A stretch of 32,000 nucleotides of DNA from Caedimonas varicaedens (GTDB lineage: Bacteria; Pseudomonadota; Alphaproteobacteria; Caedimonadales; Caedimonadaceae), in contig BBVC01000007.1 in the NCBI GenBank assembly GCA_001192655.1, positions 1 through 32,000 on the forward strand, read 5' to 3'. Below the pieces are notes generated by a model. That model saw only the letters and a list, made by a program, of their open reading frames with translations, searched no databases and was not told the origin of the DNA. Positions 1-16,869 of this stretch are shown piece after piece (within the stretch, counting starts at the first letter, position 1; every line of letters begins with the position of its first letter). The position numbers and the translations under genes were made by a program.

Positions 1-728
1 CTGATCTGGTGGTTCAGGATGCAGAAGAAAATAAATACGTTGTGGAAATCGAGCGGTGCTTTACGCCCAACTTTATGCACAAGGCTTGTTTTAATACCTC
101 TCGTTTGGTGGTGGACAGCATCTCGGGCAATCAGGACTACACCACCCTCAAGAAAGTGTTTCACATCAGTTTGTTGTACTTCTCCACCCAGGAGATGAAA
201 AAGCCCATTTATCACGGCAAGACGATTATTCATGAAATTGACACCGCCCATCCTGTGGATTTTAGGATTGCCAATCAGGGGTTGGTGATGTTTGAACACA
301 AGAACATCTTTCCCGAGTATTTCTTTATCTCCATTCCTCTTTTTAATGAGGTGATCACTCAAGAGATTGACGAGTGGCTTTACATGATGAAGCATTGTGA
401 GGTGCGGGATGATTTTAAATCTCCCACTATGAAGAAGGTTGCGGAGCGTTTAGCTGTTCTGAAAATGAGTAAGGAAGAGCGCACGGACTATTATCGCTAT
501 TTGAAAGAAGCTGTCTACTCTCAGGATATTCTCATGGCCGCAGAGCAAAAAGGGGAAGCAAGGGGAATAGAAAAGGGAATCGAAAAGGGAATCGAAAAGG
601 GAAAAGCCGAGGGAAAAGCTGAGGAGAAGATTGACATTGCGCGCAATCTTGTCAAGCAGGGGTTGGATATTGATGTGATTTGTCAGGCAACGGGGCTTTC
701 CCTTGAGACCATCAAAGAGTTGACGTGA
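1..728 (+). CDS. Rpn-family (YhgA-like, PD-(D/E)XK) recombination-promoting nuclease / putative transposase, 5'-truncated by the window edge
   Basis: The frame is open from the first bases of the window. The N-terminal DLVVQDAEENKYVVEIER fits the D...D-x-E-I-(Q/E) nuclease core of the Rpn/PDDEXK_2 family. The C-terminal helical (E/K)G-rich segment (AAEQKGEARGIEKGIEKGIEKGKAEGKAEEK) followed by IARNLVKQGLDIDVICQATGLS is typical of Rpn C-termini. Confidence 0.75.
   Translation, partial: DLVVQDAEENKYVVEIERCFTPNFMHKACFNTSRLVVDSISGNQDYTTLKKVFHISLLYFSTQEMKKPIYHGKTIIHEIDTAHPVDFRIANQGLVMFEHKNIFPEYFFISIPLFNEVITQEIDEWLYMMKHCEVRDDFKSPTMKKVAERLAVLKMSKEERTDYYRYLKEAVYSQDILMAAEQKGEARGIEKGIEKGIEKGKAEGKAEEKIDIARNLVKQGLDIDVICQATGLSLETIKELT
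564..599 (+). repeat. In-frame 12-bp tandem repeat, 3 copies (GGAATMGAAAAG, encoding GIEK-GIEK-GIEK) inside the Rpn C-terminal region
   Basis: Read directly: ggaatagaaaag ggaatcgaaaag ggaatcgaaaag, followed by a degenerate fourth unit ggaaaagccgag. Confidence 0.9.
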
Positions 729-3309
729 TGGCTCGTTTGATCTGCTCTGCTAAAGAGGGTCGATTTTTCTCAACAATCGTCATTAAAAAAAGTCCTTTGC
801 CCTGACTGTGTTCTGCCCATAAGTGACCGATGCGCGCCTTTTCTTTGCTGTCATCGTTGGTGGCGTAAATCTTGCCCTTATGTTCAATGATCAGAATCCG
901 ACCATCTTGTAACTCTGCGATAAAATCAGGGTAGAATTTACCTGTGGAGAGGGGAAGCCAAAAACCCTGCTGATCCAAATTGCGTACCCAATATTTGATC
1001 TCCGCTGTTAAATCAAGGGCTTTGGCACAGTCAAACTCTTCACCTTTATTCTCAAGTTTGCCGATTTGAGCATAGTAATGTTTGGTAAATTCATAAGGAT
1101 AACCTACATACGTGACAGAGGGATGGTATTGGTCAGGCATAAATTGAAAATCTCCAACTAGTCTAACATCTGAAACAGAAGCACTCAATACTTGTTCATA
1201 CCCCCGTTCCACACAATGAAAACGGTGTTGATCTATTTTTCTTTTGAGGACTTTAGACAAAACATAACGCCATCGTACTAACGCAGTGAGAGGGATGTCT
1301 CTTTTTTCAATAAGAAACTGAAGGCTACCCTTTATGTAGGAAAACATCTCACTCTGAGAAATATCCTGTTGCCTGACTTCTTTCTCCAGCCAACGACAAA
1401 GTTGTTCGGATGTCCATCCGGTATCGACCAAATCAAGCTCTTGCTGTTCGGCTCTGCCTAAGGACTTGTGCGTGATATGTCCCTGGTCGTTTAAATCAAT
1501 TTCCCATTGCACGCCATTTTCTGTGAAGCAAAAATCATCTTCTGTGATCTCAACAGAACAATGACTTAAGTCCCAATTTCCTATTTCTAAAAAGATATCT
1601 CGTTCCATAAGACGAAGATCATCCTCTAAATGAAGATAAAGACGTGGCACAATAAATGGAATCCCTTTTTGTGCTGAAGATTGCCTCTCCGCATAATGCT
1701 TGTTATGAATGTCAAAATTCAGAGACAAAGTTTCCCGTAGCTCTTTTGTTGGCAATGCTTTCATCAGATCATTTTGGATTGACAAATTCATATGTCCTCG
1801 AATCAGCAAGCGACTGCGCGATCCATTTTGTTCCAACGTGATGTGTGGTTCATTGAGAATAAGAGGAGCAATATAAGGTTCAACGCCTTCTGGCAGATCA
1901 ACAACTGATTGATCCTGAGCAGAATGTTGATTTTCAGAAAACAACGAAGGCTGTGGATCAACAAAGCGAGCGACCTCATTTTTTTCAAATCCCATATCTA
2001 CTAAAGCATCGCATAGTTGCTTGGCGGCATCGCGCCAAGAGGATTGACACACATAAGCATAAGCTCGATTAAGATCAGCATGAGCGCGCTTCCTAGCATA
2101 AGGCATTCTCAAAACACGTCCCAGAATTTGCTCAACATCTTTCTTGGAATAGATGGTTGCTACAGAACAAAACACATAAGCAAAAGAGCAATCCCATCCT
2201 TCTTTTAAGGCTTCTATAGTCAGGACAAATTTGATCGGACACTCAGGTGACAACAGATTAATGCCGTCTAACTCTTTTTGAGTCCCCGTGACAATGGCAA
2301 TTTCATGTCTGGGTATTTTCTCCTGTTCCAGCAGATGATTGAGTAAAACGCCTTGCGTAATGTCTTTGTTTTTTTCTTCAGCCTGAAACAGCACAATAGG
2401 GCGAATATAATCTTTTTCCTGACGGGCAACATCCTCAAGGCGTTGACGCATGAGAATGCTCTCTTTGACCGCTTCTTCCCACGTATTATGAGAAATAAGA
2501 CGAATAGGGAGTTTAATCATCTCTTCAGCTTTGAGTTCTGCTGCGGAGATGGAGCAAAGAATATTACTGTTCATAGGAGGTGTCGCTGTAAATTCCACGA
2601 CAGAAGACGCATTAATTCTTTTTAAGACTTCAACGCTAAGGGATGATGTATGATTATGGGCTTCATCGACAATCACGAGAGGGCGATGCATGGCCAAAAC
2701 ATTGCGAAAAGAAAAGAGAATGCTTCCATTCTCTTTACGTTCTAAAATCGAGTTATCTCCTGAAAAATCGGCAAAATGAGCCTCTAAATTCTCATGATGA
2801 TCATAGACTTTACGGCCTTCAGTGGTATTGGTGACGCGAAGGCTGGCAAACGTACCTACAATAATGCACGCACCCTGAAGATCGGTTGGCGTCAGAGTGT
2901 CAAAATCGCTGATGTCGATCACTTTGAAACGTCCGTTAAAGGCTTCTCGCAACGTCTCATAATTGGGATGCCCCGGCTTTTTAAGAGTCTGAAGCGTTTG
3001 GGTGCGAATCGTATTGGTCGGCACCAGCCATAAAGCAACAGGATAGTCTCTCTCTAGATAAGATTGAGAAGCAATTTTAACTGTATGCGCCGATAAAAAT
3101 GTTTTGCCTCCCCCTGTTGGCAACCGCAAACAAATATAGGGAATCCTTTCTAATCCTTTCAAAGGTTGATAAAGACAAGGATTCTTTCCGTCAGCTTCTT
3201 GCATCATGCTGTCATAAGCAGGTTTTGCGCCTATAGCACGCGCAGCTTCAAGATAAGAGTTTAAAGTTTTTAAAACTGTGAGTTGATAGTTTTTAAGAGC
3301 AAAAATCAT
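712..3309 (-). CDS. res: Type III restriction enzyme Res subunit (SF2 helicase plus C-terminal PD-(D/E)XK nuclease)
   Basis: 865-aa ORF. Helicase motif I is LRLPTGGGKTF and the DEAH box is LVIVDEAHNH. The C-terminal nuclease motif is YPDFIAEL...ILIIEHKGK. The start codon overlaps the stop of the upstream methylase (TAATG), as in mod-res operons. Confidence 0.85.
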   Translation of the reverse strand: MIFALKNYQLTVLKTLNSYLEAARAIGAKPAYDSMMQEADGKNPCLYQPLKGLERIPYICLRLPTGGGKTFLSAHTVKIASQSYLERDYPVALWLVPTNTIRTQTLQTLKKPGHPNYETLREAFNGRFKVIDISDFDTLTPTDLQGACIIVGTFASLRVTNTTEGRKVYDHHENLEAHFADFSGDNSILERKENGSILFSFRNVLAMHRPLVIVDEAHNHTSSLSVEVLKRINASSVVEFTATPPMNSNILCSISAAELKAEEMIKLPIRLISHNTWEEAVKESILMRQRLEDVARQEKDYIRPIVLFQAEEKNKDITQGVLLNHLLEQEKIPRHEIAIVTGTQKELDGINLLSPECPIKFVLTIEALKEGWDCSFAYVFCSVATIYSKKDVEQILGRVLRMPYARKRAHADLNRAYAYVCQSSWRDAAKQLCDALVDMGFEKNEVARFVDPQPSLFSENQHSAQDQSVVDLPEGVEPYIAPLILNEPHITLEQNGSRSRLLIRGHMNLSIQNDLMKALPTKELRETLSLNFDIHNKHYAERQSSAQKGIPFIVPRLYLHLEDDLRLMERDIFLEIGNWDLSHCSVEITEDDFCFTENGVQWEIDLNDQGHITHKSLGRAEQQELDLVDTGWTSEQLCRWLEKEVRQQDISQSEMFSYIKGSLQFLIEKRDIPLTALVRWRYVLSKVLKRKIDQHRFHCVERGYEQVLSASVSDVRLVGDFQFMPDQYHPSVTYVGYPYEFTKHYYAQIGKLENKGEEFDCAKALDLTAEIKYWVRNLDQQGFWLPLSTGKFYPDFIAELQDGRILIIEHKGKIYATNDDSKEKARIGHLWAEHSQGKGLFLMTIVEKNRPSLAEQIKRAITSTL

Positions 3310-4823
3310 TATGAGGCCTTCACATCGTAAGGTGTTTGTTTAAAAATGATCCCTAATGGTTTGAGCCGTTCCACGCTCAATCTGGATGCTTCTCCATAAA
3401 TCACCTTTTGACCCTCATAGACGGGTAAAGATTGCAGAATTTTCCAAGTCAACACATTTCCTCCATGAGGGCGCTTATCTCTCAAAATACCATTATATAA
3501 GAGATAGTAAGCAATATCCTTATAGATACCTAAGAAAGGACTGCTGGCTTCATCTGTTAATGCCGTATGCGTTTCTGAAAACCAGATATGAGCTGCCAGA
3601 TGAGGAAATTTAATAGCAGAATTAATGCGACCTTCAGAATCAAAAATAGGGGCGCCCAAGCGATAAAAACGATAGCCTCCCCCTCCTTGCCAACCCACAG
3701 ATTCTGATATGCCTCCTTGTTCCCCGCTAATGACCTTACGTAAACGCGGAACACAGTGCGTGATGGCATGATCTCCCATCTCTATACCGATATAGTTCCT
3801 GCCCATTTTATGGGCAACAGCCGCTGTCGTACCAGAGCCAAGGAAAGAGTCAAGCACAAGATCGCCTTCTTTCGTGGCTATTTGAAAAATGCGATGGATC
3901 AGACGTTCTGGCTTTGGAGTGGAAAAAATTTCAATATTTTTGAAAAGAGATAAAATTTCTTGTTTTGCTTGTTGGTTATGTCCTGCTTCATCATTAGACC
4001 ACCAAGTCCATGACTGCCTACCTTCTGTTTCAGAAAGATAATTTTTTCTTCTAGGTACTCCTTTGTCATCTTTACCAAACCAAAAACGACCATCAGAACG
4101 TTGCGCAAGATAGACATCTTCGACATTTTTCCAACAACGTCCTTCAGGCGGAGTATATTTTTTTCCTCCCGGAGTTACGATCGCATACATCTGATTGGGG
4201 CGATAGCCTTGTGCGGAAAAATCTCTTGACACCCAAGCTCCGCGAGGATCGTTATCCGGATTTTTATATTCTTTTAGTTGTTTTTCATATATGGGCAACA
4301 GATGTGCTGAGTTTTTAAATAAACTGCTGTTTTTTGCAAAAACAAGTATATTGTCATGAGCATCACCTAAAACAATTCTAAAATCTGGCGATGTACGTTT
4401 TTGCCACACGACATTTGCCACAAAGTTTTTTCTTCCAAAAATTTCATCCATAATAACTTTGAGATAGTGCGCCTCATGATCATCAATAGTGACCCATATG
4501 CTACCATCTTCTGACAAAAGCTCTCTCAACAGCTTGATCCTGGGAAACATCATTCCTAACCATTGGCTGTGTTCCAAGTTATCGTCATAATGCTCAAAAG
4601 CACTCTTGGTATTATAAGGAGGATCAATAAAGATACATTTGACGCGACCGGCATAATAAGGGAGCAAGGATTTTAGAGCGTGCAGGTTATCTCCTTGAAT
4701 CAACATATTAGATGTACGCTGATCCCCTGCACTATGGAGATCATCCGCTTCTAGCAATCGATAGGGAACATCTTCCGTGATTTTTGTGTGCTGATTTCGA
4801 TTCAGCCAGCTTAAAAGAGGCAT
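3309..4823 (-). CDS. mod: Type III R-M Mod subunit, beta-class amino-DNA methyltransferase (N6-A or N4-C)
   Basis: 504-aa ORF. Catalytic motif IV (CIFIDPPYNT) comes before the SAM-binding motif I (DSFLGSGTTAAVA), which is the beta-class order. It lies immediately upstream of res and is translationally coupled to it. Confidence 0.85.
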   Translation of the reverse strand: MPLLSWLNRNQHTKITEDVPYRLLEADDLHSAGDQRTSNMLIQGDNLHALKSLLPYYAGRVKCIFIDPPYNTKSAFEHYDDNLEHSQWLGMMFPRIKLLRELLSEDGSIWVTIDDHEAHYLKVIMDEIFGRKNFVANVVWQKRTSPDFRIVLGDAHDNILVFAKNSSLFKNSAHLLPIYEKQLKEYKNPDNDPRGAWVSRDFSAQGYRPNQMYAIVTPGGKKYTPPEGRCWKNVEDVYLAQRSDGRFWFGKDDKGVPRRKNYLSETEGRQSWTWWSNDEAGHNQQAKQEILSLFKNIEIFSTPKPERLIHRIFQIATKEGDLVLDSFLGSGTTAAVAHKMGRNYIGIEMGDHAITHCVPRLRKVISGEQGGISESVGWQGGGGYRFYRLGAPIFDSEGRINSAIKFPHLAAHIWFSETHTALTDEASSPFLGIYKDIAYYLLYNGILRDKRPHGGNVLTWKILQSLPVYEGQKVIYGEASRLSVERLKPLGIIFKQTPYDVKAS

Positions 4824-6819: not shown

Positions 6820-6847
6820 TTGACAGGAATCTTGAGATAGCTACTAT
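6820..6847 (+). promoter_or_regulatory. Sigma70-type promoter for the riboswitch-nrdAB transcript
   Basis: TTGACA (6820-6825), a 16-nt spacer, then TACTAT (6842-6847), about 15 nt upstream of the riboswitch. Confidence 0.55.
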
Positions 6848-6860
6848 ATGTAGTGTTTTT

Positions 6861-7040
6861 ACGGTGCATCAAAGGGATGACCTGCGATGCTTAAAAGGGA
6901 ATTCGGTGCGAAGCATATTTCAATACCGGAGCTGCCCCCGCAACTGTAAGCGGCGCGTTACTTGATCATGATGTCACTGGGAAACTGGGAAGACGGATCA
7001 GGCTGACAATAAGCCACAAGCCAGGAGACCTGCCGGAAAA
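6861..7040 (+). promoter_or_regulatory. Cobalamin (B12) riboswitch aptamer in the nrdA leader
   Basis: Contains the conserved cobalamin-element blocks AAAAGGGAAttcGGTG, GCTGCCCCCGCAACTGTAAGCGG and GTCACTGGGAAactGGGAAGAC, plus the B12 box AAGCCAGGAGACCTGCC (7018-7034). Downstream, a T-tract (7081-7084) and a cctct/agagg hairpin (7109-7125) could occlude the nrdA SD. Confidence 0.85.
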
Positions 7041-7130
7041 CAATTCGCAACCATCGGGCGGGGTGCACCGGTTGAGGGCTTTTTATCTCTGCTTTCAGCA
7101 AATCCTGTCCTCTGATAAATAGAGGTTATT

Positions 7131-9056
7131 ATGCTGACACATTCCTATGATTTCGACCGCAACGGCCATCTGATTAACTATGATCCAACCAAGATTATCC
7201 TTAATTTTCCTACAGTAAAGAAGCAAAAAGAGCCTTATCGACAAGGAGTTGACCATCATCGGTCTAGGCCAAAAGTGAATCCTCAAGAGATCCAACTCGA
7301 TCCTGCACGCGATTCTTTACTGACTAATTTCGGAAAAGCAACATTAGATGACCGCTATCTCCTTAAAGGTGAAACTTACCAACAAATGTTTGCCCGTGTG
7401 GCTAGCGCCTATGCAGATGATAGGAACCACGCCCAGAGGCTCTATGATTATATGTCTCGTCTTTGGTTCATGCCTTCGACACCCATCCTTTCAAATGGTG
7501 GCGCAAAGCGGGGGTTACCTATTTCGTGCTTTCTAAATACAGTCAAAGATTCTCTAGACGGCATTGTATCGACCTGGAATGAAAATGTATTGTTAGCTTC
7601 CAACGGTGGAGGAATCGGCACTTATTGGGGTTTTGTGCGTGGGGTGGGTGAGCCGGTAGGGCGGGCAGGAAAAACTTCCGGCGTTATTCCCTTCATTCGC
7701 GTCATGGATTCTCTGACACTGGCTATTAGCCAAGGTTCTTTGCGACGTGGATCTGCTGCGGTCTATATAGATGTGCATCATGCAGAGATAGAAGAATTTT
7801 TAGAAATTCGGAAGCCTTCCGGTGATTTTAATCGTAAAAGCCTAAATCTGCATCACGGTATTAATCTGACTGACGAATTTATGGAAGCTGTACGCAATGA
7901 CAGGGAATTTCATCTGCGCAGCCCAAAAACGAATCAGATTATGCGCACTGTGAATGCGAGAGAGCTTTTCCAGAAGATTTTAGAAACACGTTTGCAAACG
8001 GGAGAGCCGTATCTGATTTTTATCGATACAGCAAATAAATTGATGCCGAAACATCTCCGTGAATTGGGTTTGAAGATCCATATGTCGAATTTGTGTAGCG
8101 AAATCTTGCTGCCTACAGGCCCTGATCAGTACGGCAAAGACCGAACGGCTATTTGTTGCCTCTCTTCACTCAACGCTGAAACGTGGGATAAGTGGCATAG
8201 TGACCCAATGATTATTGAAGATGTATTGCACTTTCTCGACAATGTTCTTCAAGAATTCATTGACACTGCACCTGACGGTATGGCGCGTGCCAAATATTCT
8301 GCTATGCGTGAGCGGTCGGTGGGTCTAGGGTTAATGGGATTCCATTCATTCTTGCAATCTAAAAACATACCATTTGAAAGTGTGATGGCGAAGTCCTGGA
8401 ACATAAAAATTTTTCGTCATATCCGGCGCTGTGCGGATGCTGCATCGGTCATTCTTGCTGAGGAACGAGGTGCTTGTCCAGATGCTCAAGAACGCGAAAT
8501 CAAGGCGCGGTTCAGCCATAAAATTGCCCTTGCGCCAACAGCGAGTATCAGCATTATTTGTGGTGGCACGTCAGCGTGTATCGAGCCTATACCGGCAAAT
8601 ATCTATAACCATAAAACACTTTCTGGCAACTACGCGGTCAAGAATATCTATCTGGAAAAGCTGTTAACAGAAAAGGGGATAGATAATGATTCTGTATGGC
8701 AATCTATCGTTGAGAACGAAGGATCTGTGCAACACTTGGAAGTTCTTTCTCAAGCTGAAAAAGACGTATTCAAAACTGCCTTTGAAATTGATCAGCGTTG
8801 GGTGATTGAGATGGCGGGAGACCGCGCGCCTTTTATTTGTCAGGGGCAATCCGTTAATCTCTTTTTGCCCACCGATATCGATAAATGGGACTTGTTGATG
8901 TTGCATTGGATGGCGTGGGAAAAAGGAGTGAAAAGCCTCTATTATTGTCGATCAAAGTCAATTCAACGTGCTGAATATACGGGTGGGGAAAGCATGGCGA
9001 AGAAAGCGATTCAAATCAAACGCACAGATTATGAGGAATGTTTGGCATGTCAATAA
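7131..9056 (+). CDS. nrdA: Class I ribonucleoside-diphosphate reductase alpha subunit (short form, no full ATP-cone)
   Basis: 641-aa ORF with an SD (agagg) 5 nt upstream. RNR large-subunit blocks are present: MPSTPILSNGG, LPISCFL, the SNLCSEI catalytic Cys loop, ALAPTASIS, and a C-terminal CxxC tail (ECLACQ). Confidence 0.9.
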   Translation: MLTHSYDFDRNGHLINYDPTKIILNFPTVKKQKEPYRQGVDHHRSRPKVNPQEIQLDPARDSLLTNFGKATLDDRYLLKGETYQQMFARVASAYADDRNHAQRLYDYMSRLWFMPSTPILSNGGAKRGLPISCFLNTVKDSLDGIVSTWNENVLLASNGGGIGTYWGFVRGVGEPVGRAGKTSGVIPFIRVMDSLTLAISQGSLRRGSAAVYIDVHHAEIEEFLEIRKPSGDFNRKSLNLHHGINLTDEFMEAVRNDREFHLRSPKTNQIMRTVNARELFQKILETRLQTGEPYLIFIDTANKLMPKHLRELGLKIHMSNLCSEILLPTGPDQYGKDRTAICCLSSLNAETWDKWHSDPMIIEDVLHFLDNVLQEFIDTAPDGMARAKYSAMRERSVGLGLMGFHSFLQSKNIPFESVMAKSWNIKIFRHIRRCADAASVILAEERGACPDAQEREIKARFSHKIALAPTASISIICGGTSACIEPIPANIYNHKTLSGNYAVKNIYLEKLLTEKGIDNDSVWQSIVENEGSVQHLEVLSQAEKDVFKTAFEIDQRWVIEMAGDRAPFICQGQSVNLFLPTDIDKWDLLMLHWMAWEKGVKSLYYCRSKSIQRAEYTGGESMAKKAIQIKRTDYEECLACQ

Positions 9057-10135
9057 ATTACGAGAGAGAAAACCCTTTAGATTTGCAAGGAAAAGGTTTA
9101 ATCGGCCTTCTTGAAACATCCGGCAGTTATAATGTGGATCGTTACCCTTGGGCGTACTCAGCTTGGAAACGTCAGCAGCAGATTCACTGGCTGGGAGAAG
9201 AAGTACCGCTGGGAGAGGATGTCAAAGATTGGAACGGTCATAATCTTACCCAGAGCGAGCGTAATCTTCTCACTCAAATTTTTCGTTTCTTCACGCAGTC
9301 AGATGTGGAAGTAAGCGATAATTATTTCAAGCGCTATATTCCTATTTTTCAGCCACTAGAAATACAAATGATGATGGCAGCATTTACCAATATGGAAACA
9401 GTGCATATCGACGCCTATGCATTGCTCCTCAAAACCATAGGAATGCCACAAACCGAATTTCAAGCGTTTCGAGAGTATACTTCCATGCGCGCCAAAGTGG
9501 ATTATATGCATAGCTTTGGCACTGCGACCTGTGCCGATGTGGCGCGTACGCTGGCGATGTTTGGTGCCTTTACGGAAGGTATGTCGTTGTTTGCGAGCTT
9601 TGCTATGCTGATGAATTTTCCTCGTTTTAATAAAATGAAAGGGATGGGGCAAATTGTTTCATGGTCAGTACGAGATGAATCGCTGCATTGCGAGAGCATT
9701 ATCCGCCTTTATCACGAATGGCAAAATGAAACCGGGGCAGTTACGAAATCAATAGCCGATGATATCATCGATATAGGTAAAACAATGGTAGAATTAGAGG
9801 ATAAATTTATAGAGCTTGCCTTCGAGTTGGGTGAGATAGAAGGTATGATGCCACAAGATATTCAAGCGTACGTGCGTTACATTACTGACTGGCGACTAAC
9901 ACAGCTTAAGCTCACGCCCATTTACGGCTATTTTACCGGTACAGCAGGGAAATATAAGAAAACTAAGGAACACCCTTTACCTTGGCTGACTGTTATGCTC
10001 AATGGCGTAGAACATGCCAATTTCTTTGAGGCGCGTGCGACGGAATATTCCAAAGCTGCAACAAAAGGTGAATGGTACGGCGAAAGAGGCGCATGGGGAA
10101 TGTTTGACACTATTCGAACGAAAAATACAGCCTAG
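9038..10135 (+). CDS. nrdB: Class Ia ribonucleotide reductase beta subunit (diiron-tyrosyl radical R2)
   Basis: Metal ligand pattern: D in QSDVEV; E-x-x-H in METVHIDAY with the radical Tyr four residues after the His; E in FTEGMSLF; E-x-x-H in RDESLH. The ORF overlaps the nrdA stop. The true start may be the second ATG at 9047, which has better spacing to GAGGA. Confidence 0.9.
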   Translation: MFGMSINYERENPLDLQGKGLIGLLETSGSYNVDRYPWAYSAWKRQQQIHWLGEEVPLGEDVKDWNGHNLTQSERNLLTQIFRFFTQSDVEVSDNYFKRYIPIFQPLEIQMMMAAFTNMETVHIDAYALLLKTIGMPQTEFQAFREYTSMRAKVDYMHSFGTATCADVARTLAMFGAFTEGMSLFASFAMLMNFPRFNKMKGMGQIVSWSVRDESLHCESIIRLYHEWQNETGAVTKSIADDIIDIGKTMVELEDKFIELAFELGEIEGMMPQDIQAYVRYITDWRLTQLKLTPIYGYFTGTAGKYKKTKEHPLPWLTVMLNGVEHANFFEARATEYSKAATKGEWYGERGAWGMFDTIRTKNTA

Positions 10136-10870: not shown

Positions 10871-11017
10871 GAGTCAATCCTTTCTATTTTTTATGTTTAC
10901 CTTCTATTCATCTGTGTTGCCTGCGATTTGTTAGCGCCGGAGGTAAAATGATACAGATCATCGGTTGAATTTTGATACACCCACGCATTAACTCCTTTTC
11001 AAAGGAGTTTAGGAATA

Positions 11018-12852
<1,835 letters not shown>

Positions 12853-12980
12853 ACCCTTATTTTTTTATCTCAGGTGTATCAATTTTCATCCGAGGATTTT
12901 TAAAAATCTGTATCAAATTTCAGCCGATGTTGACATCTGATGAGACATTGACAATTTCTCCTAGGGTTGTTGATGTTTAG

Positions 12981-13002
12981 TGGCGGTGGGGTGTTCAAGC
13001 AC
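12981..13002 (-). repeat. Degenerate copy of the tRNA-Ser 3' end (candidate distal att site of the integrase islet)
   Basis: tggcggtgggg (12981-12991) matches the tRNA-Ser 3' end tggcggagggg (16870-16880) at 10 of 11 positions, in the same orientation. A TTCAAG T-loop-like remnant follows. It lies just beyond the last islet gene. Confidence 0.35.
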
Positions 13003-13257
13003 TTCCTCCGTCACGCCTGTATCATGCAGGCTTTTAAAGCATATGATCGTCCAACCCAACATGCAAGGCAAAAAGGTGGCGATTGTCTCCATTTTTTGTT
13101 CAATCTCTGAAATGAGGTAGGCTCTGATTTTTTATGGTGCTCTTTTTCAGAAAAAACAAACGATTTTGAAAAAAATAAGAGAATGCCAATCAACACGAAA
13201 CGTAAGAGTATAGATGGGTTGGGTAGATCGCTTGACTAAATTCTTCCTCTATTATCC

Positions 13258-13689
13258 TCACTCAGGATAAAAATTCTCATCCATAATTTGCTCAAAAGTG
13301 TAGGGACAGCCAGTGGGAAAGTTTTTTGCTGGCAAATTTGTTTCTCTCGCAGCTTTAGAAATAGAAACCCTATAAGCATCTTCTAAAATCTCTGTCATCT
13401 TGCTTTTCAGGCTGGGGTTTTTTCTCAAGTGTATTTTAGCCTGATCTCTCTGTTCTCTGATTGTATAGATCCAGCTATGACCTCTCATGGTTGGTTGAAA
13501 TTGCCATTTAAGAAGATGTGTGAGAACAAGGGTGAGACGATTAATCATTTGTGTTTCATTGCTACTCACCATGTCTTCAAGCTCCTCAATGAGATGATCA
13601 AAATCTACTTCGCTCATTTTTTTATCCCTTAAAAGTTGTGCTGTATGAACAGTCCATCCGTAGTTGTCTTCATCATGTTTAGGAATCAT
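13258..13689 (-). CDS. DUF29 family protein (paralogue 1)
   Basis: 143 aa. DUF29 hallmarks as I recall the family: N-terminal D-x-YGW...AQLLR, EELE acidic helix, HLLKWQFQP, NPSLK, and the C-terminal FPxxCPYTFEQIM...FYPE. Confidence 0.85.
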   Translation of the reverse strand: MIPKHDEDNYGWTVHTAQLLRDKKMSEVDFDHLIEELEDMVSSNETQMINRLTLVLTHLLKWQFQPTMRGHSWIYTIREQRDQAKIHLRKNPSLKSKMTEILEDAYRVSISKAARETNLPAKNFPTGCPYTFEQIMDENFYPE

Positions 13690-13698
13690 TTGTCTGCC

Positions 13699-14130
13699 TC
13701 ATTCTGGGTAAAAGTTGTCATTCATAATTTGATCAAAAGTATAGGGACATTCGGTGGGAAAGTTTTTTGCTGGCAAATTTGTTTCTCTTGCTGCTTTATC
13801 AAGCGCTACATTGTACGATCGAGTTATCATTTCATTTAATTTACTTTTGAGGCTAGGATTATCTTCCAGGTAGTACTTAGCTTGCTTTCTGTGTTCTCTT
13901 ATGGTGTAGATCCAACTATGTCCTCTCATGGTTGGTTGAAATTGCCATTTAAGAAGATGTGTGAGAACGAGAGCAAGGCGGCTAATCATGGCATGTTTAT
14001 TACTAATCCCCATTTCTTCAAGCTCCTCGATAAGTCCGTCAAAATCTACTTCGTTCATTTTCTTATCCCTTAAAAGTTGCGCTGTGTGAACAGCCCACCC
14101 GTAGTTGTCTTCATCATGTTTAGGAATCAT
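13699..14130 (-). CDS. DUF29 family protein (paralogue 2; tandem duplicate of paralogue 1 with a 441-bp period)
   Basis: 143 aa, with 111 of 143 residues identical to paralogue 1 by hand alignment. The gap to paralogue 1 is 9 nt, with GAGG spanning the stop codon. Confidence 0.85.
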   Translation of the reverse strand: MIPKHDEDNYGWAVHTAQLLRDKKMNEVDFDGLIEELEEMGISNKHAMISRLALVLTHLLKWQFQPTMRGHSWIYTIREHRKQAKYYLEDNPSLKSKLNEMITRSYNVALDKAARETNLPAKNFPTECPYTFDQIMNDNFYPE

Positions 14131-14139
14131 TTATCTGCC

Positions 14140-14565
14140 TCATTCTGGGTAAAAGGTGTCATTCATAATTTGATCAAAAGTATAGGGACATTGGGCTGGC
14201 AAATCTTCGTGTCCCATTGCCCGTTGAGCTCTGTAAAGGGAAGTTCGATAACAATCTTTGATAGAATCCTGTATATTGTCTTTCAACGTTTTGTTATCTT
14301 CTAACTCGTGTTGTAAGTCGAGTCTCAATAAGCTCATTGCCCCTTTCCACTCACGACCTCTCCAATAAGGCTGAAATTGCCAGAGAAGAAGATAAAATAT
14401 GAGAGATTTTAAATGGTACTCCACATATTTTTTCTGATTCCATGCAAGAGAAAGAATTTCTTCTTCCAGCATGGGTAGATCAAGCTCTTCAAATCGCTTT
14501 GTCGCTAAAAGCTCTGCCTGCTCTTTAACCCATCCGTAATAATCAGTTTCGTACCTGGAACTCAT
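14140..14565 (-). CDS. DUF29 family protein (paralogue 3, divergent)
   Basis: 141 aa. It keeps YYGW, LWQFQP and the C-terminal CPYTFDQIMNDTFYPE but diverges elsewhere. Its start lies 2 nt after the RelE stop, with the SD (GAGGAA) formed by the last RelE codons. Confidence 0.8.
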   Translation of the reverse strand: MSSRYETDYYGWVKEQAELLATKRFEELDLPMLEEEILSLAWNQKKYVEYHLKSLIFYLLLWQFQPYWRGREWKGAMSLLRLDLQHELEDNKTLKDNIQDSIKDCYRTSLYRAQRAMGHEDLPAQCPYTFDQIMNDTFYPE

Positions 14566-14567
14566 TT

Positions 14568-14852
14568 TTATTCCTCATACACTTCTTTTCTGTGTCCTAC
14601 GTTCAAGACGATAACAATAAGCTTGTGATCTATAATCTCACAAACGAGGCGATAATCGTTAAATCTGAGTTTCCATAACCCTACCTTATCTCCTCTAAGG
14701 GGCCTAACTTTTGTGAGGGGTTTGGCCTCATCAGAAGGAGTAGACCAAGAAGCAACAACAATCTTTAAGCGTTGAGTGATATTTTTAGCAACAAAAGGAT
14801 CAAGCTTATTGAGCTGCTTTTTGGCTTTCTTATTCCATTCAATGCTCCACAT
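14568..14852 (-). CDS. Type II toxin, RelE/ParE (StbE-like) family
   Basis: 94 aa. WSIEWNKKAKKQLNKLD...LRGDKVGLWKLRFNDYRLVCEI...LIVIVLNVGHRKEVY matches the RelE/StbE fold signature. It overlaps the upstream antitoxin by 14 nt. Confidence 0.85.
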   Translation of the reverse strand: MWSIEWNKKAKKQLNKLDPFVAKNITQRLKIVVASWSTPSDEAKPLTKVRPLRGDKVGLWKLRFNDYRLVCEIIDHKLIVIVLNVGHRKEVYEE

Positions 14853-15075
14853 GAGTCTCTCTCAATTCTTGTTCTACTTCTTCCATGCTATAAGTTTTTT
14901 TCTCACCAGATATCTCCATTTCTTTTAAAGCTTCCAAACCATCGCGTGTATCCTCCATATCTTCCATAAGTTCAAAAAAAGCTTTTTTGATCAGAGAGGT
15001 TTCGTCTTCCCCAATTTCTTTGGCAAGCTCATGAAATCTTGACTCCAGTTTTTCTGAAACATTAATCGTTAACAT
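14839..15075 (-). CDS. Ribbon-helix-helix (CopG/RelB-like) type II antitoxin
   Basis: 78 aa. N-terminal RHH pattern (LTINVSEKLESRFHELAKEIGEDETSLIKKAF). The acidic C-terminal part (DTRDGLEALKEM...KTYSMEEVEQEL) is typical of RelE-partner antitoxins. GAGGAG SD upstream. Confidence 0.75.
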   Translation of the reverse strand: MLTINVSEKLESRFHELAKEIGEDETSLIKKAFFELMEDMEDTRDGLEALKEMEISGEKKTYSMEEVEQELRETHVEH

Positions 15076-15108
15076 TGTTTCTTCTCCTCATTCTCTTATT
15101 CATTTCTC

Positions 15109-15540
15109 TCATTCAGGGTAAAATTCATCATCCATGATCTGCTCAAACGTATACGGACATTCGGTGGGAAAGTTTTTCTTATATACACCTGTTTCTTCAA
15201 TAGCACCTTCTAATGCGTCCTTATAAGCATCTTTGATGTATTCGGGAATGGTAGGCTTTAAACTTGGATTGTCCTTGATAACAGCTGAGAGTGCCTTTCT
15301 TTGATTCCTGATGCTATTCTTCCAACTTCTACATTGTAGATCGGGTTGATATTTCCATTTAAGGAGATGTTTCAAAAGCTGTTCCATCCTAGAATGAATT
15401 TCACGCTTTTCTGATGCCCCCATACTTTCAAGCTCCTCTATCAAATGTTCAATATCCAGTTCATTAAATTTACGTTGACGCAGCAACTCAGCTTCCGCCA
15501 TCGTCCATCCGTAAAAATCGTCATCATGTTTAGGGTTCAT
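15109..15540 (-). CDS. DUF29 family protein (paralogue 4)
   Basis: 143 aa. FYGW, LIEELESMG, HLLKWKYQP, NPSLK and FPTECPYTFEQIMDDEFYPE are present. It starts 39 nt downstream of the integrase stop. Confidence 0.85.
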   Translation of the reverse strand: MNPKHDDDFYGWTMAEAELLRQRKFNELDIEHLIEELESMGASEKREIHSRMEQLLKHLLKWKYQPDLQCRSWKNSIRNQRKALSAVIKDNPSLKPTIPEYIKDAYKDALEGAIEETGVYKKNFPTECPYTFEQIMDDEFYPE

Positions 15541-15579
15541 TGTTATTCCTTTCTCAAAAGTCCTCTCAAATCGATTGTT

Positions 15580-16749
15580 TCATCCAAATACCTCTGCAAC
15601 TTTATTGGTTGCCTTCTTCAAATGTTCTAACTCTAAATGAGCATAGCGTGTTGTTGTGGCTATATTCTTGTGTCCCAGCAGCTTTGAGACCGTATAAAGA
15701 TCAACGCCTTTTTTAAGGGCGAAGCTGGCAAAAGAATGACGAAGGTCATGGATACGGACATCGGGGATGCCAGCAAGGTGACGAACCTTATGCCATGTTG
15801 TTTCTATTTTACTCAGATGTGATCCAGGTGTTTTGCCATGAAATACATAAAGATTAGCAGAATCTTTTTTAAGATTCTTTAACAAATCAATAGCCTTGCT
15901 ATTCAGGGGAAAAGTTTTAGCTCCCGTTTTACTATCTTGGAGATGGATGTAGCCTTCTTCCATAAAAACGTCGCTCCACTTTAATGTTAAAATTTCTCCA
16001 CAGCGGCAACCTGTGTAAAGCAACATACGAATGGCTGCAATGGTATAAGGAGAAGAGTGGGATATTTTTTCTTGTTCTGATAAAATGCGCTCTAACCGCT
16101 CGTATTCTTCTTTTGAGAGGAATCGTTCCATTTTTTTATCAGGGGATTTTTCTACCCCCTGGCAGGGATTCGTATTTTTCTCTCTATAACCCCATTTTTC
16201 TGCTTGATTGAAAGCAGTGCTGAGGAGAATGAGACATTTATTGCAGTTTCCGCGTGCATGCTTCATAGAACTCACAAAGCTGATCACATCATCTTGGATG
16301 ATAGCACCTATCTTCTTTTTTCCAAAGAATGGAAGGATATACTTGTTAATTCTATGTTCATCTCTATGAATAGTGCTGGGCTTATGTTTTTCTAATATGT
16401 ATTTTTGTCTGAATATCTCAAAGAAATCCTCAAAAGACAGAAAATGTTGCTCTTTAATTTGGAGAGCTTTCTTTTGCTCTTTAGGATCAAGACCATTGAC
16501 AATATCCGTAGACAAGTTTTTGGCTTTCTTCCGGGCTACATCTGCAGAAATGTTTCCATGAATTCCTATCTTGAGATAGGAATATTTTCGTGTGAGGGGG
16601 GATGTATAAAAAAATACATACGTCTTATAACCTGTGGGTAGAATACGACATCCAAAGCCTTTAACCTCATCATCCCAAACAATATAGTCTTTTTGTTTTG
16701 TTAAACTGGCATCTATCAGCTTATTCGTTAACTTTGGCATCATTAACAC
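15580..16749 (-). CDS. int: Tyrosine recombinase, P4-like phage/island integrase with an N-terminal DUF4102-type arm-binding domain
   Basis: 389 aa. The N-terminus (KDYIVWDDEVKGFGCRILPTGYKTYVFFY) is DUF4102-like. Catalytic residues: R in LLYTGCRCGE, HDLRHSFAS, and LLGHKNIATTTRYAH. It lies 120 nt from the 3' end of tRNA-Ser. Confidence 0.9.
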   Translation of the reverse strand: MLMMPKLTNKLIDASLTKQKDYIVWDDEVKGFGCRILPTGYKTYVFFYTSPLTRKYSYLKIGIHGNISADVARKKAKNLSTDIVNGLDPKEQKKALQIKEQHFLSFEDFFEIFRQKYILEKHKPSTIHRDEHRINKYILPFFGKKKIGAIIQDDVISFVSSMKHARGNCNKCLILLSTAFNQAEKWGYREKNTNPCQGVEKSPDKKMERFLSKEEYERLERILSEQEKISHSSPYTIAAIRMLLYTGCRCGEILTLKWSDVFMEEGYIHLQDSKTGAKTFPLNSKAIDLLKNLKKDSANLYVFHGKTPGSHLSKIETTWHKVRHLAGIPDVRIHDLRHSFASFALKKGVDLYTVSKLLGHKNIATTTRYAHLELEHLKKATNKVAEVFG

Positions 16750-16869
16750 TCATTCAAACATGTTAGAGCAATGTTAGTGCTTAATGGCTTTTAATGTCAA
16801 CTTTATTATTTTAATAGGGTATTATAAAAAAACTATCAATCACCTAAAATCAGCATAAAATAAGACATT

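Follow-up and report, generated by a model that had tools for sequence, protein, structure and literature searches.

A tRNA-linked integrase islet of Caedimonas varicaedens carrying a RelBE pair and four DUF29 genes, members of a family that recurs behind toxin–antitoxin operons

Organization of the islet

The window analyzed here, a 32,000-nucleotide stretch of contig BBVC01000007.1 from Caedimonas varicaedens, a Holosporales endosymbiont of Paramecium, contains a compact islet of seven co-directional open reading frames (ORFs) on the minus strand (13258-16749): an integrase gene, a toxin–antitoxin (TA) pair and four members of the DUF29 family (PF01724). They lie in the 5' to 3' order int, DUF29-4, a RelB-like antitoxin gene, relE, DUF29-3, DUF29-2 and DUF29-1 (Table 1), with intergenic spacings, taken from the ORF coordinates, of 39, 33, -14, 2, 9 and 9 nt; four PF01724 genes within 3.5 kb is far beyond chance. 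A first-pass annotation had described the same ORFs, order, strand and gaps, all of which we confirm, and its view of a recombinase-led islet with genes packed as one operon-like unit is supported. The architecture itself is ordinary, and PF01724 is a large family for which there is a single orphan crystal structure and hardly any literature (searchable papers yielded one incidental mention of DUF29, PF01724 or IPR002636, among yeast two-hybrid self-activators in Synechocystis). Two features of DUF29 genes have no earlier description, namely their repeated occurrence at the 3' end of TA operons belonging to several families and their solo occurrence on minimal replicons; to these we add their tandem arrays and fusions.

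The genes are closely abutted. The relE/DUF29-3 junction reads GTGTATGAGGAATAAAAATG, in which the final two sense codons of relE form the Shine–Dalgarno (SD) sequence GAGGAA, followed by TAA-AA-ATG, and both DUF29/DUF29 junctions read CCAGAATGAGGCAGA(T/C)AAATG, i.e. TGAGGCAGA(T/C)AAATG, with the SD spanning the preceding stop codon; both features had been noted earlier and are present in the sequence. The sole strong promoter-like site on the islet coding strand is the one upstream of int, which is a consensus match only, and the region as a whole has no more promoter-like sites than shuffled sequence would give. No terminator-like site was found on the coding strand within the islet. A single promoter-like site and the absence of terminators would fit one transcript, short of proof. 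A relBE promoter may lie within DUF29-4, although the promoter scan detected none there.

Table 1. Features of the islet and its flanks, in order from the tRNA gene to the insertion sequence
Feature	Coordinates	Strand	Remarks
tRNA-Ser(GCT)	16870..16961	-	ARAGORN; Rfam tRNA 56.7 bits
sigma-70-like promoter candidate	16771..16800	-	TTGACA-18-TAACAT, 10/12 consensus matches, 22 nt upstream of int start
int, P4-type tyrosine integrase, 389 aa	15580..16749	-	Pfam PF00589, PF13356, PF14659
DUF29-4, canonical PF01724	15109..15540	-	Pfam E 3.9e-52; 39 nt after int, 33 nt before relB
RelB-like ribbon-helix-helix antitoxin, 78 aa	14839..15075	-	overlaps relE by 14 nt
RelE/StbE-family toxin, 94 aa	14568..14852	-	PF05016, TIGR02385
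relE stop / DUF29-3 start junction	14562..14594	-	CACAGAAAAGAAGTGTATGAGGAATAAAAATGA, SD GAGGAA inside relE, 2-nt gap
DUF29-3, divergent PF01724 paralogue	14140..14565	-	Pfam E 6.8e-33
DUF29-2, canonical PF01724	13699..14130	-	Pfam E 4.9e-47; 9 nt after DUF29-3
DUF29-1, tandem duplicate of DUF29-2	13258..13689	-	repeat families D1, D2
non-coding stretch, DUF29-1 to IS21 end	12936..13257	.	no attR, no cold-shock-domain remnant
IS21-family element	10929..12935 (about)	+	Pfam rve, IstB_IS21; inverted repeats I1, I2

The integrase and the boundaries of the islet

The integrase has arm-binding (Arm-DNA-bind_3), SAM-like (SAM_3) and catalytic (Phage_integrase) domains with intact HxLRH...Y motifs, and its gene adjoins a tRNA gene, as in islets of P4-type tyrosine integrases. 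The tRNA-Ser(GCT) gene, which the first-pass annotation missed, lies 120 nt upstream of int with its 3' end facing it, and this 3' end is the presumed integration target on the attL side. We found no attR: there is no copy of the tRNA 3' end with three or fewer mismatches per 25 nt elsewhere in the window, and the best local alignments are noise. The far boundary is therefore lost or displaced, and the islet is probably immobilised. A complete-looking IS21 element, also missed previously, lies ~320 nt from DUF29-1 and occupies the expected attR boundary (istA, 11018-12052, 344 aa; istB, 11986-12852, 288 aa; two sets of terminal inverted repeats), and it may have removed or displaced the attR.

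The islet resembles other tRNA-linked P4-integrase islets with TA genes in having an arm-binding tyrosine integrase beside a tRNA 3' end, a small relBE-bearing cargo and an IS boundary, but differs in that there is no attR or direct repeat and in a cargo made up almost wholly of four PF01724 genes. Linkage to tRNA genes is not general for DUF29, with a tRNA of any kind in only 2/60 loci. An integron cassette array was considered and rejected; int scores 56.9 bits against TIGR02249 (cut-off 265), and the 2-39 nt gaps are too short for attC sites.

The RelBE pair

In RelBE systems the toxin RelE cuts ribosome-bound mRNA, and the antitoxin RelB counteracts it and represses the operon. The islet pair has the expected arrangement for a type II toxin of the RelE/StbE group, with a small upstream antitoxin ORF overlapping the toxin gene by 14 nt. 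The toxin matches PF05016 (E 1e-14, 55.4 bits; cut-off 23), TIGR02385 (40.4 bits; cut-off 27.9) and the RelE-like toxin family phrog_1213 (E 2e-22), and is 100% identical to a C. varicaedens protein annotated as 'toxin RelG'; its ratio of nonsynonymous to synonymous substitution (omega; omega and the synonymous divergence dS are Nei-Gojobori estimates) is 0.18. The antitoxin falls below the cut-offs of NCBIfam antitoxin_RelB_like (36.9 bits; cut-off 50) and Pfam DUF6290 (26.1 bits; cut-off 27) and matches phrog_4085 (E 2e-16). It has clear homologues in two of the DUF29 loci fetched for comparison (numbered with the prefix L), L094 and L128, and is 74% identical to the L094 protein, with an omega of 0.14. 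Its 78 residues correspond to nearly all of the 69-72 residue antitoxin models, with no obvious C-terminal extension resembling the chaperone-addiction (ChAD) element.

The four DUF29 genes

All four DUF29 proteins are full-length members of PF01724 (114-177 bits over model positions 2-138, E 7e-33 to 4e-52; gathering score 22.5 bits). DUF29-4 is 100% identical to Cva_00133 of C. varicaedens, and the window proteins also match Cva_00130 at 100%. DUF29-1 and DUF29-2 share 78% aa identity and 82-87% nt identity and are products of a tandem duplication, with dS ~0.95 as compared with 1.2-2.1 for the other pairs. Omega is 0.05-0.16 over the 12 gene pairs with an estimable dS (DUF29-3 and its orthologues, 0.07-0.14; DUF29-4 and its relatives, 0.05-0.08; DUF29-1 and DUF29-2, 0.16), and by these values all four copies are under purifying selection, none of them decaying.

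DUF29-3 is the divergent member. It belongs to a clade of five cluster representatives counting the window protein, and so has four relatives; it retains all seven family-invariant residues (D8, W12, D29, E36, L60, W73 and L94) and is without M40, G41, R51, H58, K61, S72 and Q80. The proposal that DUF29-3 is a degenerate copy holds for the loss of R51, H58 and other near-invariant residues, but not in the sense of decay, given its strong purifying selection. The three paralogue types seen in the window co-occur in shifting combinations here and in L091 and L093.

PADLOC, which has no DUF29 model, returned no match for three of the copies and a marginal match of DUF29-4 to MkoA (E 0.022); MkoA belongs to the Mokosh defence system, and the match, seen for that copy only, covers its residues 207-310.

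Structure of the DUF29 proteins

AlphaFold2 models of DUF29-4 and DUF29-3 (mean predicted local distance difference test, pLDDT, 94.7 and 90.9 respectively) share a helical bundle whose helices span approximately residues 9-21, 30-64, 71-90 and 92-117. The sole solved DUF29 structure is 3FCN (Rru_A3208), to which DUF29-4 is related by phmmer (E 2e-5), by profile comparison (E 1.3e-7) and as its top Foldseek match (probability 1.00, template modelling score, TM, 0.62); the helices of the DUF29-3 model follow the same pattern, and 3FCN is absent from the Foldseek list of that model. The four window proteins are thus in the same family as 3FCN, ORF11 of phage phiRSS1 and phrog_11797, for none of which has a function been assigned.

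The first-pass annotation suggested that DUF29 proteins are HEPN-like ribonuclease effectors acting through an R-x6-H motif, and that DUF29-3 is a regulatory copy devoid of catalytic activity. The strings on which this was based are in the sequence (RLTLVLTH, RLALVLTH and RMEQLLKH, with HLKSLIFY in DUF29-3); R51 and H58 show conservation of 90% or more in the close subfamily and lie on the same face of helix 2, and DUF29-3 has lost both. There are also general likenesses to the HEPN/MNT (HepT/MntA) systems, in that DUF29 proteins are small and helical, are associated with mobile elements and TA genes, and contain an R...H string. However, a Foldseek search of the two confident models against 350,542 PDB chains gave 3FCN as the only useful match and no HEPN, DUF86, Cas13 or Csm6 chain even at E <= 10. 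HEPN proteins carry their motif where the last core helix begins, whereas the R-x6-H of DUF29 sits in the middle of helix 2. Among 20 diverse members, 7 lack R51 and 5 lack H58, neither residue is present in 3FCN, and the invariant residues of the family are others; moreover, R-x4-6-H strings turn up in 40-64% of composition-preserving shuffles of DUF29 proteins, and DUF29-3 itself has two of them elsewhere in its sequence. Neither the four-helix HEPN fold nor an invariant R-x4-6-H motif is thus found, there is no MNT partner, and DUF29 genes occur alone, including on 5 kb plasmids and in 6.6 kb inoviruses where a lone toxin would not be expected to persist. With residues that are not invariant and a motif at chance level, the HEPN assignment is not supported, and we regard it as close to refuted.

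For both models the best non-self match was the translin-like nuclease NeC3PO, which we rejected as not significant (E 0.6-2, TM 0.35-0.38). It is nonetheless the same protein in each case, and D8, D29 and E36 among the DUF29 invariants are acidic.

Distribution of DUF29 genes

A profile search identifies 10,313 PF01724 clusters at 50% identity, spread over Proteobacteria, Cyanobacteria, Chloroflexi and Nitrospirae, with others on plasmids and in phages. We fetched 80 genomic loci (L001-L080) from Gamma- and Alphaproteobacteria, Cyanobacteria, Chloroflexi and Nitrospirae. The 132 immediate neighbour proteins at 79 of these loci match 170 Pfam families with no recurrent partner, and clustering of the neighbours by BLAST recovers syntenic relatives only. 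Close co-directional neighbours are about as common upstream of DUF29 (33/57) as downstream (31/59), and many chromosomal copies sit between housekeeping genes. The commonest neighbour is Uma2 (DUF820; 6/132), and others include Mrr, AAA_21, GT4-conflict and integrases. The Uma2 proteins are putative endonucleases and constitute another multi-copy orphan family of cyanobacteria. Membership of DUF29 in type I restriction-modification operons, an idea prompted by large upstream genes in the same orientation, was rejected, as the 132 neighbours span 170 unrelated Pfam families.

DUF29 is also found on very small replicons. It is the sole accessory gene on plasmids pHW104 (5.1 kb), pACRY08 (4.9 kb) and pTAO100 (6.4 kb), and is present alone, as ORF11, in phiRSS1-type filamentous phages (inoviruses) of Ralstonia, 6.6 kb in length. 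The phage protein is 41-42% identical to DUF29-4, and its ORF, to which no function is assigned, has been described as transferring from one phage lineage to another (PMC4471427). This solo occurrence indicates that DUF29 needs no TA partner. The suggestion that the islet represents an obligate multi-component module is not consistent with these replicons, with the 170 neighbour families, or with the absence of an adjacent TA pair at 85% or more of DUF29 loci.

Multiple copies are likewise not restricted to the islet. Four tandem copies are present in L005 and L072 and pairs in L091, L093, L103, L112 and Photorhabdus, and double or triple DUF29 domains are fused in proteins of 281-346 aa (P0131, P0134, P0140, P0144, P0152 and P0162). 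Arrays and fusions being common, four copies in one islet are a habit of the family and do not demand the special explanation that was previously sought for them. The domain fusions recovered are limited to DUF29-DUF29 repeats, apart from a single fusion to a TnpB helix-turn-helix that is probably a mis-call. The multi-DUF29 chains hint that tandem paralogues act as pseudo-dimers, although read-through gene calls at ATGA overlaps are possible.

Close relatives of DUF29-4 adjoin genes for resolvases, a ResT/TelK telomere resolvase (protelomerase), phage lysozyme and HU, and DUF29-4-like genes are cargo of mobile elements in endosymbiont-like genomes. A recurrent unit among them comprises a resolvase gene, a 48 aa ORF, DUF29 and a cold-shock-domain (CSD) gene, which suggests cassette-like shuffling at a conserved ...FYPE-stop-SD junction. 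In L081, L082, L084-L087, L094 and L095 the CSD gene starts 9-13 nt after DUF29, a spacing like that between the copies in the window. In a separate context, L116 on the Nostoc plasmid pTCL26-01_B, DUF29 lies between genes of the ShlB/FhaC transporter and filamentous-haemagglutinin types, a two-partner secretion locus.

These contexts raise the question of whether DUF29 proteins are diversifying conflict proteins of mobile elements, acting as anti-defence, exclusion or immunity-like binders, with arrays that give breadth or hetero-oligomers and with TA genes as mere co-accumulating neighbours in shared cargo regions. The inoviruses, 73 IMG/VR contigs and 110 plasmid records that contain DUF29 would fit such a role, as would the resolvase, protelomerase and lysozyme neighbours of the DUF29-4 relatives, the neighbouring Uma2, Mrr, AAA_21, GT4-conflict and integrase genes, the changing combinations of three paralogue types in the window, L091 and L093, and the fused proteins. 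We nevertheless consider it decidedly unlikely: the PADLOC search gave only the one marginal match described above, the PHROG family of DUF29 (phrog_11797) carries no function, and a search of BFVD gave no structural match to DUF29. In addition, many chromosomal copies lie among housekeeping genes, the strong purifying selection argues against arms-race diversification, and the constant upstream position of RelE-type toxins would be left unexplained.

DUF29 genes downstream of toxin–antitoxin pairs

The arrangement of relB, relE and DUF29-3 recurs outside the window. The environmental contig L094 has, in order, a resolvase gene, RelB (77 aa), RelE (94 aa), a DUF29-3 orthologue and a CSD gene; its RelE is 68% identical to that of the window, with the same 14-nt overlap with relB and the same 2-nt gap to the DUF29-3 orthologue (73% identical). 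The two tricistrons are 70% identical in DNA sequence, and the longest identical run, 33 nt, is at the relE stop/DUF29-3 start; in a 1 kb alignment of the window with L094 this junction is the sole 30-nt window at 100% identity. The link between DUF29-3 and the TA pair is not accidental, as this recurrence shows. Across 14100-15120 the similarity to L094 is a mosaic, with the 5' halves of relB and DUF29-3 at 80-93% and the 3' end of relB and the middle of relE at 33-57%, a pattern that would fit either a fast-evolving toxin–antitoxin interface or recombination.

Related arrangements involve other pairs. In L093 a DUF29-3 orthologue (85%) is 21 nt after HigB-HigA and is followed by a DUF29-2-like gene, and in the viral contig L128 a canonical DUF29 gene starts 11 nt after a distant RelBE pair (35%/31% identity). 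Among ~185 DUF29 loci, same-strand TA pairs of at least six families lie just upstream of DUF29 (L094, L093, L128, L001, L105, L110, L114, L011/L051 and L134), including ParDE (L001), RelE/ParE-NadS (a Citrobacter plasmid), RelE/ParE-DUF2283 (pACRY06), Phd-VapC (Skermanella), FitA-PIN (two cyanobacteria) and HicAB (L134). The 8.8 kb plasmid pACRY06 of Acidiphilium cryptum (L110) has on one strand RelE/ParE, DUF2283, DUF29, DUF4160, DUF2442, DUF4160 and DUF2442, with five of the six junctions overlapping or abutting and one gap of 64 nt, a 'super-operon' of TA-like pairs with DUF29 mid-way.

The position of DUF29 is not fixed in all respects. Same-strand toxins of two families are found 12 times upstream and once downstream of DUF29, although small same-strand gene pairs counted without annotation show no significant polarity (12 upstream and 9 downstream), and we therefore claim polarity for toxins of the RelE/ParE type only. 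TA-like genes are also found downstream, as with a MazE-family antitoxin (L043) and the DUF4160-DUF2442 pairs of L110.

Interpretation of the islet

With little more than even confidence, we favour the reading that this is a decayed tRNA-linked islet in which RelBE is an addiction module and the DUF29 genes, transcribed together with it, are autonomous cargo without toxicity. The P4-type integrase would have inserted the islet at the 3' end of tRNA-Ser(GCT), with the far end later lost to the IS21 element, and the putative promoter ahead of int would drive the cargo as a single compact operon. RelB and RelE, behaving as a conventional type II addiction pair according to established RelBE biology, would stabilise the islet, and the four DUF29 genes would be accessory cargo of the kind typical of plasmids, phages and islets, expressed by riding on upstream genes. 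The array could have grown by accretion together with the tandem duplication that gave DUF29-2 and DUF29-1. DUF29-3 would be a specialised paralogue fixed as a 3' passenger of RelE-superfamily TA operons and translated by termination-reinitiation after relE, by way of the conserved stop/start junction. The DUF29 proteins, helical bundles of ~140 aa, are more likely to work through binding to a partner than as enzymes.

There are precedents for a passenger gene of this type. Escherichia coli relBEF and mazEFG are TA operons with functionally independent downstream genes. In Caulobacter higBA-higX, the co-transcribed downstream gene acts independently of the TA pair, which is a foreign insertion upstream of it (PMC13384398). 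The islet shares with these a gene that is predicted to be co-transcribed behind a TA pair, but differs in that the downstream gene is itself mobile cargo and in that the arrangement recurs across phyla and TA families. The independence of higX from its TA pair counsels caution in reading function from operon position.

Gene content and spacing, family membership, fold, purifying selection, the recurrent tricistron and the solo occurrence of DUF29 are shown here; the single transcript, the translational coupling, the lack of toxicity, the binding role and the history of integration are deductions. Several observations weigh against the favoured reading. In a count over the 185 loci using crude hidden Markov models built in this analysis, all nine RelE/ParE-superfamily toxins lie upstream of DUF29 (9/9; P = 0.004), and TA-family Pfam matches no further than 700 nt from DUF29 have a density ~1.7-3.7 times that at 1.5-3.6 kb (P 0.002-0.03 for 9-15 far matches and ~0.1 if there are 20, the range arising from incomplete family lists). 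The DUF29-3 clade is behind a TA pair in all three contexts with known upstream DNA, and the loss of near-invariant residues from a protein that seems strongly constrained would fit a new, TA-related role. The TA link is stronger than simple co-residence predicts. As for the general association of DUF29 with TA genes that the first-pass annotation expected, the greater density nearby and the upstream position of RelE/ParE toxins agree with it and the many loci without TA genes do not; the connection is real but partial.

An alternative is that DUF29-3, and other DUF29 proteins encoded next to TA pairs, are true third components of RelE-superfamily TA operons that modulate antitoxin stability, toxin activity or operon regulation, with DUF29-2, DUF29-1 and DUF29-4 as partners or spare paralogues. 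Beyond the polarity, the enrichment and the divergent yet constrained DUF29-3 clade, it would account for a tricistron whose -14/+2 spacing is unchanged and whose junction matches over 33 nt although the DNA as a whole is only 70% identical, for the DUF29-3 orthologue that follows HigB-HigA, where the partner has been swapped within one toxin superfamily, and for the distant RelBE of L128. The DUF29-3 to DUF29-2 order is also kept in L093, and the fused double-DUF29 proteins suggest pairing of paralogues. We think this possible but unlikely, since most DUF29 genes have no TA neighbour, and those that do come from different clades and adjoin unrelated toxins with unrelated targets (RelE, ParE, VapC and HicA); the non-polar annotation-free count and the TA-like genes downstream of DUF29 also argue against it.

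The closest parallel for a third component is provided by the toxin–antitoxin–chaperone (TAC) systems, in which a SecB-like chaperone is attached to TA pairs of several families (PMC5105189, PMC3581621). HigBA, MqsRA or HicAB with such a chaperone share with DUF29 the position of the third, 3' gene and the occurrence of homologues behind several TA families. However, the DUF29 proteins match only PF01724 in Pfam, are all-helical, have no SecB match and are unrelated to SecB; most occur without TA genes, and RelB has no evident C-terminal extension comparable to the ChAD element of TAC antitoxins (PMC5105189).

In a broader form of this idea, which we regard as doubtful, DUF29 would be a widespread accessory partner of TA systems, coupled to the toxin and tuning antitoxin turnover, toxin activity or recovery. 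Were this so, the DUF29-3 lineage would be specialised for RelE-superfamily pairs and solo copies would act in trans, and mobile elements could use a solo DUF29 to disarm TA-based host defence.

The multi-component HEPN module proposed for this DNA is thus replaced by a TA operon with a recurrent third gene, in a family whose members are mostly solo and whose two models match no HEPN fold. The HEPN reading can be set aside, and DUF29 is a good experimental lead in its own right.

Other features of the window

Two other regions of the window are of note. A cobalamin riboswitch (6845-7051, plus strand; 113.7 bits) is directly upstream of the genes for the large and small subunits of ribonucleotide reductase (7131-10135), which suggests B12-responsive control of an nrdAB-type enzyme in this endosymbiont. 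On the minus strand (712-4823), a gene of the ResIII/DEAD helicase type (865 aa) overlaps an N6/N4 DNA methylase gene (504 aa) by 1 nt, and the two look like a type III restriction-modification pair.

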